A DNA stretch of 64,000 bases from Steroidobacteraceae bacterium. Lineage in GTDB: Bacteria > Pseudomonadota > Gammaproteobacteria > Steroidobacterales > Steroidobacteraceae. Position 1 is the first letter of the stretch, and every line of letters begins with the position of its first letter. Below are positions 28,654 to 31,112 of this stretch, piece after piece. The notes under the pieces are model-generated. The model saw nothing but the letters and a program-made list of their open reading frames with translations, ran no database searches and was not told the origin of the DNA. The stretch lies in the NCBI GenBank assembly GCA_050738635.1, contig JBOIAB010000120.1, positions 79 through 64,078 of the forward strand, read 5' to 3'. The translations under genes were made by a program, and so were the position numbers.

Positions 28654-30087
28654 GTGAGGGGCGCCGCGCTCAAATCGCTCTCGCTGGCAGTCCTGGGGTT
28701 GCTGGCAGGCTGCGCGCTGCGCCAGGATGCTCTGCGCGCTCCCGAGCTGCCCGCGCAAGCCAGAGCGGACCCGGCGCGCTTCGTCGTGATCACGGTGCGG
28801 AACGACCCGGGGCCGGTCGTTGCGACACCCGCCTCCACGCCACGGGGCTATGGCGGGGTGAGCCTGTACCAGGTGAGTGCGAGCGCGCGCGCAACCGCTC
28901 ATGCACTCGAGCACGATTACCGGCTGCGGGAGGTTTCAGCGTGGCCGATCGAGAGCCTGCGGGTGCATTGCATCGTGGTGCGTCTGCCGAATCTGACGCC
29001 GCGCGCGGCCATGATTGCGCGCCTGGCGCATGACTCACGCGTCGAGTCCGTGCAGCCGCTCAACGAATTCAGCACCGAGACCGAACCCAACAGCAGCGCG
29101 GCACCTAAGGCCCCCCCCACCGGCTCGAACAAGCGCACCTACCTCCCCCTGCAAACCAACCTGCGGGAGCTCGGCGTGCTGCAGGCGCACCGGCTGTCGC
29201 AGGGCGCGGCCGTTCGGATCGCGATAATCGACACCGGAGTGGACTACCGGCATCCCGACCTCGAGGGGCGCATCGTCGCGCAAGGCGACTTCGTTGCCGG
29301 CGGCGACGAATTCACGGATGACCGCCACGGCACGGAGGTCGCCGGCGTGATCGCAGCGACAGCGGACGGCGGCGCCGGAGTGCTGGGCGTCGCACCCAAA
29401 TCGCGCCTGATCGCGCTCAAGGCCTGCTGGCCGCTGCGGCAGAATCCGGCCGAGGCGGCCTGCAACAGCTTCACGCTGGCGCAAGCCCTCCAGGCCGCCA
29501 TCAGCGCGCGGGCCGATATCGTCAATCTGAGCCTCGCCGGGCCGCCGGATCCGCTGCTCGCACGCCTGATCCGCTACGGCATGCAGCACGGAATCATCTA
29601 TGTCGGCGCGGTCGCGCCGGCGCGCAGCGGACTCGTCGATGAGTTTCCGGTCGACGTCCCCGGAGTTCTCGGCGTGCAGTCCGCCGAGGACGCGGCCAGC
29701 GCTTCGCGACATCTGCTCGCCCCCGGTCACGGCATCCTGACGCTGGTGCCGGGCGGCCGGTACGATTTTGCGTCCGGCAGCTCCCTCGCGACGGCGGAAG
29801 TGACCGGAATCGTGGCGCTGCTGGTGGCTGATGGCCGCAAACTGCCGCAGGCACAGGTTGAGCAGATTCTGACGCGCAGCTCCCGGCAGCTCACCACACC
29901 CGCGGGTGTTTTCACCTCGGTCGACGCCTGCGCCGCGGTGGCCGATGTACTGGCCCGCGCCGGCTGCGCGGCGACCGATCCGCCCTCGACAACAACCAGG
30001 AACTGCGCCCGCGATCACAGGAACGCGTGCAACTGGATGAACCACAGCCTCGTATTCAGCGAAGCGTTGCCGCGCGGCCCGTTGTAG
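28654..30087 (+). CDS. Subtilisin-family (S8) serine peptidase, lipoprotein
   Basis: GTG at 28654 lies 1 nt after the anti-sigma stop. The lipobox is LLAGC and an I9-like propeptide follows. The catalytic triad contexts are IAIIDTGVD, HGTEVAGVIAA and SGSSLATAEVTG. Confidence 0.85.
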   Translation: MRGAALKSLSLAVLGLLAGCALRQDALRAPELPAQARADPARFVVITVRNDPGPVVATPASTPRGYGGVSLYQVSASARATAHALEHDYRLREVSAWPIESLRVHCIVVRLPNLTPRAAMIARLAHDSRVESVQPLNEFSTETEPNSSAAPKAPPTGSNKRTYLPLQTNLRELGVLQAHRLSQGAAVRIAIIDTGVDYRHPDLEGRIVAQGDFVAGGDEFTDDRHGTEVAGVIAATADGGAGVLGVAPKSRLIALKACWPLRQNPAEAACNSFTLAQALQAAISARADIVNLSLAGPPDPLLARLIRYGMQHGIIYVGAVAPARSGLVDEFPVDVPGVLGVQSAEDAASASRHLLAPGHGILTLVPGGRYDFASGSSLATAEVTGIVALLVADGRKLPQAQVEQILTRSSRQLTTPAGVFTSVDACAAVADVLARAGCAATDPPSTTTRNCARDHRNACNWMNHSLVFSEALPRGPL

Positions 30088-31112
30088 TCGCGCACGCCCG
30101 TTCGTATCTGCAGGAACTGCACCGGCGTCAGCTCGTACACCAGGCTCACCCGGCTCTGGCGGTTGCCGTGTATGTCCCGGTCGGGATCATAGGGCTCGAA
30201 CGACAGCTTGAGATTATTGCCGGCCGCGATGAGCCAGTCGGCTTCGAGCAGCGCCGCGGCCTGTGTCACTCCGTTCACCGGCGCGACCTCGTTCTTGACT
30301 GAATCGAGCTCGCCGAGCCAGTCGACCGGCCCGGTGCGGAAGCCGCCGAAGACGCCAAAGATCTTGCGCCGCGCGTACGAGCTATCGTCATCGTTGGCCG
30401 CGACTCCGAGCCGCCACCCCGACTCGACATAGCTCATCTGCAGGCCATATTCCTTCCCGGGGCTCGACGGGAGGCTGTTCGCAAAGGTGCCGTCGGTCAC
30501 CGTGACCTGTGCATCCCAGTGACCCCGCAGCCAGCCGAACTCCAGGCCGGTGTCAGGAGAGTACATGCCGGTGCTGCTGACATCGTAGACAAACGCCGTC
30601 TGATCCTCGAGCCGAAAGCCAAACGGCAGGTACATCTGTCCCGCTTTGAGGTACCAGTCGTGAGCCGCCGACCAGAAGAGAGCGTAGGCCTCGTGATTGA
30701 TGGCCGTGCCGGGCGCCACCTGCTCATCGACATAAAGGATGAGCCGGTTTGGAATGACTTCCGCCTCGGCATACACCCGTCCCTGCTGGACTTCGAGCTG
30801 ATCGGCGGTCTTCGCGCCGGGCGTCTGCGTGAAATTGGCGTCGTAGCGGAAATCGCCGCCGACGCGCAGAAATTTCGCGACTTCTCCGGTCCATAGTCCC
30901 CAGTCCCCACGGATGGGGTGCGCCGGCAGGATGGTCTGCGCAAACACATCGCCGAAGTCGCTGCGCAAGCCGCCCCCGGTCGGGTTGACGTGGCAGGCCT
31001 GGCACTTCAGTCCCATCCGCACCGCCAAATAGGGTTCCGCCAAGGCGCCCTCGCCGCCCAGGAGCATCGCCAGCGCGAGCAGCCCGGCGAAATACTTGCC
31101 ATGTCTGATCAT
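30015..31112 (-). CDS. Outer-membrane beta-barrel protein with an N-terminal CXXCH heme-c motif (fused cytochrome-porin-like)
   Basis: ATG at 31112 is preceded by GGGGAGAGA. The signal peptide is [25 protein letters not shown]. CQACH sits 12 residues into the mature protein. About 330 aa of alternating amphipathic strands follow, ending in IQLHAFL. Confidence 0.6.
   Translation of the reverse strand: [365 protein letters not shown]

Follow-up and report, generated by a model that had tools for sequence, protein, structure and literature searches.

The gene considered here encodes a putative fused cytochrome-porin and lies in a 64,000-nt stretch of DNA from a Steroidobacteraceae bacterium (assembly GCA_050738635.1, contig JBOIAB010000120.1, positions 79–64,078), hereafter the window. 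Gene order is heme-copper oxidase operon, TorF/Gcw porin, extracytoplasmic-function (ECF) sigma factor, anti-sigma factor and S8 peptidase, followed by the convergent cytochrome-porin gene and, divergent from the latter, a radical S-adenosylmethionine (SAM) island (Table 1). The cytochrome-porin reading frame starts at ATG 31112, with a GGGGAG ribosome-binding site just 5′ of it, and homologs begin at the matching position; an alternative in-frame TTG at 31157 would give a longer reading frame but is an unlikely start because it is located within a promoter element. As read from the sequence, the signal peptide runs from a basic n-region through a hydrophobic core to an A-L-A cleavage site, Cys37 and Cys40 of the single CXXCH are the only cysteines, and the protein ends in FIQLHAFL. 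An initial annotation of this DNA had described the cleavable signal peptide, a mature N-terminus with one CXXCH, the lack of any other Cys pair and an aromatic-rich IQLHAFL end, all of which match the sequence. It had also suggested, without claiming homology, that the product is a small cytochrome-porin fusion laid out like Cyc2, a view borne out by the conservation of the single CXXCH and by a confidently predicted 16-strand barrel, although the barrel extends over ~290 residues (77–365) and not the ~330 first suggested.

A word-index search with the cytochrome-porin returned 2351 homologous matches, all annotated as hypothetical, and the family comprises 1045 clusters at 50% identity (E ≤ 0.001). 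Of 120 close homologs, 119 have CXXCH, the sole exception being a fragment without an N-terminus, and so do all representatives with an intact N-terminus at identities down to 28%. Among full-length family members, 328 of 329 carry it, which argues that the motif is not fortuitous, as the initial annotation had cautioned it might be. The motif is embedded in a longer signature, consisting of an A, the cleavage point and then EP[Y][LIF]A[VI]xxGxxCxxCHxNxTGGGxR, of which CxxCHxNxTGGGxR is the invariant core. Members have a median length of 365 residues (range 340–416); those with named sources come from metagenome-assembled genomes (MAGs) of Steroidobacteraceae, Steroidobacter and Woeseiaceae, and the metagenome loci bear soil-type sample names. 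The family fits no NCBIfam model, the window protein giving a weak match to the LbtU porin alone (E 0.016). Searched against Pfam, the window protein matched nothing even at E values up to 10, Porin_O_P and Porin_4 included, and a sequence search of the PDB gave chance-level matches only; Porin_O_P or Porin_4 matches do appear in a few relatives, where they are faint or precomputed.

The initial annotation had proposed counting the strands with AlphaFold, and an AlphaFold2 model built on 50 diverse members (predicted local distance difference test score (pLDDT) 92.7, predicted template-modeling score (pTM) 0.87) does predict a barrel, with 16 strands. In this model, the heme peptide has a pLDDT of ~93 and forms short helices at residues 27–33 and 52–60; modeling on close homologs only gave a pLDDT of 70 with the heme peptide unresolved, and the diverse alignment was used instead. 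Foldseek comparison with the PDB retrieved the 16-strand porins VhChiP, PorB, OmpU, Omp32, OprO (4rjw) and OprP (2o4v), with template-modeling (TM) scores of 0.55–0.62 for general and phosphate-selective porins and 0.62 for OprO. PorB, OmpU, VhChiP and OprO/OprP thus share the barrel fold but have no heme-attachment motif, and no solved structure of a fused cytochrome-porin was found in sequence and structure searches of the PDB. Apart from the heme motif, His362 is the only His or Met that is conserved in the family (93%). Three residues separate it from the point where this strand, the last one, ends on the periplasmic side, and strand alternation should turn it toward the lumen; because it is conserved and expected to be lumen-facing, it may be the distal heme ligand.

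Cyc2 has been defined by a signal peptide, one CXXCH and a 16-strand porin, with an AXPXFAR[Q/K][T/Y] motif upstream of CXXCH that was said to occur in Cyc2 alone and served as a filter for inclusion, a PXL downstream of CXXCH and a length of at least 365 residues (most 400 or more); three Cyc2 clusters (1–3) were described, sequences without PXFAR were filtered out, and OprO/OprP served as templates for barrel models (Keffer et al. 2021, PMC8406198). Canonical Cyc2 genes were collected by searching reference genomes for DNA that encodes AxPxFA[R][QK]-N4-CxxCH. The resulting 120 loci, which include Mariprofundus and other Zetaproteobacteria, Acidithiobacillus, Chlorobiaceae and Nitrospira defluvii, provided a canonical set of 86 full-length proteins of 387–517 residues (median 438). 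When an alignment of 110 family sequences was compared with these 86 using hhalign, the full-length profiles matched over 326 columns with a probability of 98.9% (E 3.6e-17). Each domain also matched separately, the barrel at 95.5% (E 1.3e-8) and the heme peptide at 96.9% (E 1.6e-10), whereas control comparisons of the family barrel with the Cyc2 heme peptide (0.8%), of the family barrel with an unrelated TorF barrel (0.8%) and of the family with reversed Cyc2 (1.6%) gave no match. The Pro-N9-CXXCH register is found in 326 of 329 family members and in 86 of 86 Cyc2 proteins, and mature His16 of the window protein occupies the same register as H16, the heme ligand in the model of A. ferrooxidans Cyc2. 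These comparisons provide good support for placing the family in a fused cytochrome-porin superfamily in which both domains are homologous to those of Cyc2, and our confidence in this architecture and homology is high.

The family is nevertheless not Cyc2 proper. PXFAR[Q/K][T/Y] occurs in 0 of 329 family members and in 79 of 86 canonical Cyc2 proteins, and PXL after CXXCH (C..CH...P.L) in 0 of 329 and 56 of 86, respectively; at these places the window protein has A-E-P-Y-L-A-V-R-M and H-V-N-P-T-G-G-G-L. A search with Cyc2 hidden Markov models (HMMs), suggested in the initial annotation, was carried out with a surrogate model built from the 86 proteins rather than with that of FeGenie. It gave 12.1 bits for the window protein and at most 43 for other members, compared with at least 138 for true Cyc2, a result that speaks against Cyc2 proper while the remote homology detected by hhalign stands. 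Cyc2 of A. ferrooxidans, Cyc2PV-1 of M. ferrooxydans and Cyt572 of Leptospirillum share with the family a signal peptide, Pro at mature position 2, CXXCH at mature residues 12–16, an FG..F stretch that follows the heme motif, and a barrel of 16 strands resembling OprO/OprP. By contrast, the family has EPY[LIF]A[VI]R and P-TGGG-L in place of the Cyc2 motifs, a three-residue insertion after the heme motif, and proteins ~75 residues shorter (median 365 compared with 438 residues), the window protein being exactly at the Cyc2 length cut-off. Moreover, its barrel is much better conserved than the poorly conserved barrel of Cyc2 and contains many conserved charged residues, and a His at −4 from the C-terminus, the position of His362, is present in 298 of 329 family members and 0 of 86 Cyc2 proteins. 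Finally, members from the other sampled clades have a dedicated lipoprotein cytochrome partner and an adjoining ECF sigma module. The family is therefore best described as an unannotated sister family of Cyc2, with motifs, partner and regulation of its own; the literature we searched describes canonical Cyc2 only, and no prior description of the sister family was found in it. The canonical motif AxPxFAR..CxxCH was also seen in a Steroidobacteraceae MAG (L022, DASQRV010000050.1, 91–141, minus strand), so that the two families look like paralogs and not like lineage-specific versions of one protein.

Could the protein instead be an ordinary diffusion porin, with a heme-free CXXCH that binds a metal or forms a disulfide? 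The match of its fold to general porins and the absence of a cytochrome annotation in Pfam and NCBIfam would fit such a role. We consider this very improbable, given that Cys, Cys and His do not vary across more than 1000 clusters at 50% identity and stand in the exact Cyc2 register, that the heme peptide by itself shows homology to its Cyc2 counterpart, and that the usual partner, discussed below, is itself a CXXCH protein. A different comparison is with MtrCAB, MtoAB and PioAB, which have separate decaheme proteins and a barrel of ~26 strands. The placing of heme in an outer-membrane barrel would be alike in concept, and the lipoprotein cytochrome of sister clades could be likened to MtrC; here, however, a 16-strand barrel would carry one fused heme, and the lipoprotein that accompanies it is likewise single-heme. 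Neither the separate multiheme cytochrome nor the ~26-strand barrel of MtrAB/PioAB-type systems applies to this locus, and no multiheme gene was found in the window.

The gene neighborhood was compared across 5 loci from exact look-ups, 80 metagenome loci (at least 50% identity) and four distant loci (L206–L209, ~30–40% identity). In the close clade (at least 65% identity), the arrangement of the window is kept. In nearly all loci of the 50–58% identity clade, a lipoprotein gene encoding ~250–310 residues lies directly upstream on the same strand, its stop overlapping the cytochrome-porin start, and an overlapping upstream lipoprotein gene is likewise present in four of four distant loci. The partner protein combines a lipobox and one CXXCH (FTPICxxCHIGxxAPxGLxLD) with a Big_5/CopC-like immunoglobulin (Ig) domain at its C-terminus. 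Exactly one CXXCH occurs in 53 of 56 complete partner reading frames, and the heme domain (IC..CH.G..AP.GL.L) is covered by no Pfam or NCBIfam model. Among the distant partners, those of L206, L208 and L209 carry CXXCH, and that of L207 has a swapped domain order and CALSGCH (CX4CH). Named sources of the distant matches are Woeseiaceae and Steroidobacter MAGs, and two of the four loci are on megabase contigs. Upstream of the partner gene, L206 and L209 have a Lipoprotein_15 gene.

The second recurrent neighbor is the sigma module. An ECF sigma/anti-sigma pair is found near the cytochrome-porin gene in the close-clade loci with long flanks, many sister-clade loci and each of the four distant loci, in varying arrangements; both this module and a radical SAM module recur beside the gene in several orientations, including same-strand arrays. 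In the window, the anti-sigma sequence QHIATCPEC is a zinc-binding anti-sigma (ZAS) signature, which points to control of the ECF sigma factor by redox or thiol sensing, and zf-HC2 is annotated in the anti-sigma orthologs of L125 and L207. In L206 (10515–11807) and L209 (9709–10911), an Alginate_exp-like barrel and an RskA_C-type anti-sigma factor replace the TorF porin and the ZAS anti-sigma factor.

Table 1 Features of the cytochrome-porin locus and of the surrounding window (window coordinates unless a locus is named)
Feature	Position	Strand	Basis or remark
Cytochrome-porin gene (365 aa, fused monoheme, Cyc2-related)	30015–31112	−	Open reading frame and translation; stop codon 30015–30017
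Signal peptide, residues 1–25, cleavage after A-L-A	31038–31112	−	Sequence reading; A-x-A then EPY in every homolog
Heme peptide, residues 26–76 (~50 residues)	30885–31037	−	Conservation, hhalign, AlphaFold2 model
CXXCH (C37-Q-A-C40-H41, mature residues 12–16)	30990–31004	−	Within family signature
16-strand β-barrel porin domain, residues 77–365	30018–30884	−	AlphaFold2, Foldseek, barrel-only hhalign
His362, last strand (QLHAFL), candidate distal heme ligand	30027–30029	−	Family conservation
ECF-type promoter-like element TGAACC-N17-GTAC	31140–31166	−	Last base 27 nt (GGTA core 28 nt) before ATG
Inverted repeat GGTTCA-N3-TGAACC in 94-bp divergent region	31161–31175		One arm is the −35-like box of the promoter element
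Second motif copy TGAACC-N14-GGGTAC	27273–27298	+	Between TorF-porin stop and ECF sigma gene
Heme-copper oxidase operon (COX2 with COX_ARM, COX1, COX3)	22435–26041	+	Pfam; relatives add COX4_pro
TorF/Gcw_chp family putative outer-membrane porin, first gene of sigma module	26501–27262	+	Pfam Gcw_chp; NCBIfam TIGR02001 above cutoff
ECF sigma factor, 192 aa, ATG 27355 (alternative ATG 27307)	27355–27933	+	Pfam Sigma70_r2, Sigma70_r4_2, Sigma70_ECF; NCBIfam
Anti-sigma factor, 234 aa, GTG 27948, HxxxCxxC (QHIATCPEC)	27948–28652	+	Weak NCBIfam anti-sigma matches
S8 (subtilisin-type) peptidase with lipobox LLAGC	28654–30087	+	Pfam Peptidase_S8; partial NCBIfam mycosin, QhpE
B12-binding radical SAM	31207–32691	+	Start of biosynthetic-looking island 31207–44714 (both strands)
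NTP_transf_5	32701–33933		Island also holds two methyltransferases
Glycosyltransferase GT4	35544–37025	−	Radical SAM island
HprK/ScmC-like P-loop protein	36661–37815	−	Radical SAM island
acyltransferase_3	39831–41054	−	Radical SAM island
ATP-binding cassette (ABC) exporter	40946–42928	−	Radical SAM island
Further glycosyltransferase	43596–44714	−	Radical SAM island
Partner lipoprotein cytochrome gene	L125:9183–10001; L206:7286–8050; L207:7246–8001; L208:7150–8004; L209:7238–8056

The initial annotation had noted a 94-bp gap between the cytochrome-porin gene and the divergent radical SAM gene (ATG 31207), with a palindrome in it; the coordinates agree, and the palindrome reads GGTTCA-ACC-TGAACC. 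Aligning this region across nine close-clade loci revealed the palindrome as an inverted repeat with 6-bp arms, which is conserved in all nine (with a variable spacer in L123 and L129) and is unique in the window, where 0 are expected by chance. One arm belongs to an element that is shaped like an ECF promoter with a GAAC-type −35 box. In the 64 kb, TGAACC-N14-20-GTAC occurs twice compared with 0.2 expected, before the cytochrome-porin gene and before the ECF sigma gene; the pattern was derived from the first of these sites, and the independent evidence consists of the second site and cross-locus conservation only. A site just before an ECF sigma gene is the expected place for an autoregulated ECF promoter. 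The element also precedes the cytochrome-porin gene in L123, L124, L126, L128, L129, L131 and L132, and the motif precedes the sigma gene in L121, L123, L126, L130, L131 and L132, against a background of about 2%. In the sister clade, an equivalent, CTAAACC-N16/17-GGTACTTACTC, stands before the operon of partner and conduit.

With a relaxed form of the motif, upstream sites were counted for the partner lipoprotein cytochrome gene in 30 of 57 loci and for the ECF sigma gene in 9 of 31, compared with a background of 1.2% per region. No such site was found upstream of the radical SAM gene (0/35), the S8 peptidase gene (0/25), the anti-sigma gene (0/25) or COX1 (0/7). On the strength of these counts relative to background, the adjacent ECF sigma factor most likely includes the cytochrome-porin in its regulon. 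The idea that the radical SAM gene shares this promoter was rejected, as the motif with a −10 element on that side is seen in 0 of 35 loci. Thus, of the control region that the initial annotation assigned jointly to both divergent genes, the gap and the palindrome are real, whereas the ECF-type motif appears to serve the cytochrome-porin. Gene order and shared promoter together support the ECF sigma/anti-sigma/S8 module, and not the radical SAM island, as the probable partner of the gene.

There are parallels with the FecA/FecR/FecI systems, in which the gene for the outer-membrane transducer is itself a target of its sigma factor. Known cell-surface signaling transducers of this kind are TonB-dependent receptors with an N-terminal signaling domain. 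Like the Fec and ZAS systems, the locus pairs an ECF sigma factor with a membrane anti-sigma factor and includes a gene for an outer-membrane protein, with a shared autoregulated promoter. Unlike FecA, the outer-membrane component is not TonB-dependent, and the module contains an S8 lipoprotein peptidase and a TorF-type porin. By this logic, the protein could be an outer-membrane heme sensor of O2, NO, Fe(II), peroxide or redox state that signals via the anti-sigma factor, with cleavage by the S8 peptidase releasing the ECF sigma factor. The ECF sigma/anti-sigma pair is indeed the most widely conserved neighbor, often with the S8 peptidase, the shared promoter motif matches Fec logic, and the anti-sigma factor bears a redox-sensitive ZAS-type HxxxCxxC. 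We regard a sensor as unlikely, however, because nothing comparable to the N-terminal signaling domain of a TonB-dependent receptor is present here, a co-translated lipoprotein cytochrome partner and homology to Cyc2 suit electron relay better, and a ZAS anti-sigma factor can sense redox state by itself.

A further possibility is that the protein works with the island of radical SAM, NTP_transf_5, HprK-like, glycosyltransferase and ABC-exporter genes, as an exit channel for its product or as a redox partner. A radical SAM–NTP_transf_5 unit, in some cases with a ScmC-like gene, adjoins the cytochrome-porin gene in about a third of loci and in several orientations; in L139, L159, L166, L168, L176 and L202 it forms same-strand arrays directly downstream, whereas in the window it is divergent. 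Set against this recurrence, the radical SAM gene does not share the ECF-type motif, the island is absent from four of four distant loci, where the sigma module and the partner cytochrome are nevertheless retained (in L209, the sole radical SAM gene is ~2.4 kb away and looks unrelated), and it is hard to see what an export channel would do with an invariant heme site. A functional link to the island is accordingly highly unlikely in our view. The radical SAM–NTP_transf_5 core nonetheless adjoins the cytochrome-porin gene in many genomes, with differing orientations.

The reading we favor is that the gene encodes an ECF-controlled, outer-membrane monoheme electron conduit related to Cyc2, to which we assign a probability of about 0.6; that the cytochrome-porin moves electrons across the outer membrane is held with moderate confidence. 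In this mechanism, the protein would be exported by Sec, acquire through the cytochrome c maturation system one c-type heme, bound covalently to Cys37 and Cys40 and ligated proximally by His41, and be inserted as a barrel by the β-barrel assembly machinery (BAM). The heme peptide would sit at or inside the periplasmic mouth of the barrel, where the family-specific His362 on the last strand could supply the second axial ligand. From there, the heme could pass electrons between carriers in the periplasm and a substrate that reaches the barrel, for example Fe(II) or a different small redox-active solute. In the other sampled clades, the co-translated Ig-domain lipoprotein, a monoheme cytochrome, would be the probable redox partner, which may have been lost or relocated in the clade of the window. 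Expression would depend on the adjacent ECF sigma factor, restrained by the ZAS-type anti-sigma factor and associated with the S8 lipoprotein peptidase, so that an envelope or redox signal would trigger production of the conduit.

Several observations weigh against electron conduction. The partner cytochrome gene was not found by tblastn or HMM search in the window or in six close-clade loci, and the 64-kb window contains no cytochrome c maturation (ccm) genes, no other credible c-type cytochrome and no periplasmic c-type cytochrome or cupredoxin. Because the canonical Cyc2 motifs are absent, the heme environment may differ from that of Cyc2, and the charged barrel lumen, unlike that of Cyc2, could indicate a specific solute rather than iron. 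The promoter has been assigned from motif conservation only. The nearby oxidase looks like a cyo-type quinol oxidase, with COX_ARM in the window and COX4_pro in relatives, and its adjacency to the sigma module is seen in the window's clade only and not in the sister clade. A quinol oxidase would not accept electrons from cytochrome c. The adjacent oxidase was accordingly rejected as the electron sink, being quinol-oxidase-like and linked to the gene in a single clade.

The same features bear on whether the protein is a bona fide Cyc2-type Fe(II) oxidase that conserves energy by passing electrons to the adjacent terminal oxidase. Both of its domains are homologous to Cyc2, and a heme-copper oxidase operon lies 4–8 kb away in the window's clade, an arrangement with a parallel in the rus operon of A. 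ferrooxidans, which couples cyc2 to cox genes (PMC10654088). The oxidase nevertheless has quinol hallmarks, including a weak COX2 match, and is unlinked to the gene in the sister and distant clades. Moreover, no Cyc1-like cytochrome or cupredoxin carrier was found nearby, the window and its relatives look organoheterotrophic, and the canonical Cyc2 motif in a Steroidobacteraceae MAG argues for paralogs with different roles. The remainder of the window, with aromatic ring-cleavage and ring-hydroxylating dioxygenases, xylan and glucuronyl esterases and phosphoketolase, agrees with the heterotrophic-looking context seen in the initial annotation. Because of the quinol-like oxidase, the linkage in one clade, the lack of a nearby soluble carrier gene and this organoheterotrophic setting, Fe(II) oxidation for energy is the less likely use of the protein, and a genuine Cyc2-type oxidase feeding the adjacent oxidase is quite unlikely.

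More broadly, electron conduction by this family could involve a two-part device. We tentatively suggest that the heme-porin and the lipoprotein Ig/CopC-like monoheme cytochrome together form a conduit, switched by the ECF, ZAS and S8 components, in abundant organoheterotrophs of soil and marine sediment (Steroidobacteraceae and Woeseiaceae), although this stronger proposal is at present less probable than not being so. If it is true, the conduit would provide regulated electron exchange with extracellular iron, humic substances and other redox-active solutes. Cyc2 is the main marker gene for inferring microbial iron oxidation in metagenomes, and surveys filtered on PXFAR[Q/K][T/Y] would have excluded the sister family. 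A working conduit would extend extracellular electron exchange to organisms now seen as plain heterotrophs and would offer experimenters a compact two-protein system with an ECF sigma factor as a regulatory handle. With the conserved His362, in turn, the way in which a fused cytochrome-porin holds its heme can be tested directly.

Some minor features of the locus deserve mention. The radical SAM island resembles HprK-related and SynChlorMet-type cassettes, with every NCBIfam match far below cutoff, and a second radical SAM gene lies outside the main island (48109–49371, minus strand). A tetratricopeptide repeat (TPR)–sulfotransferase fusion (16827–18740, minus strand) matches the CcmH/CycH TPR model, yet is not a cytochrome-maturation gene; L121 has a homolog in the corresponding position. 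An HprK/ScmC-like gene separates the S8 peptidase and cytochrome-porin genes in L121 and L122. In the window, these two convergent genes overlap at their 3′ ends by 73 bp (30015–30087), and in L123 the corresponding overlap is 93 bp (10997–11089).

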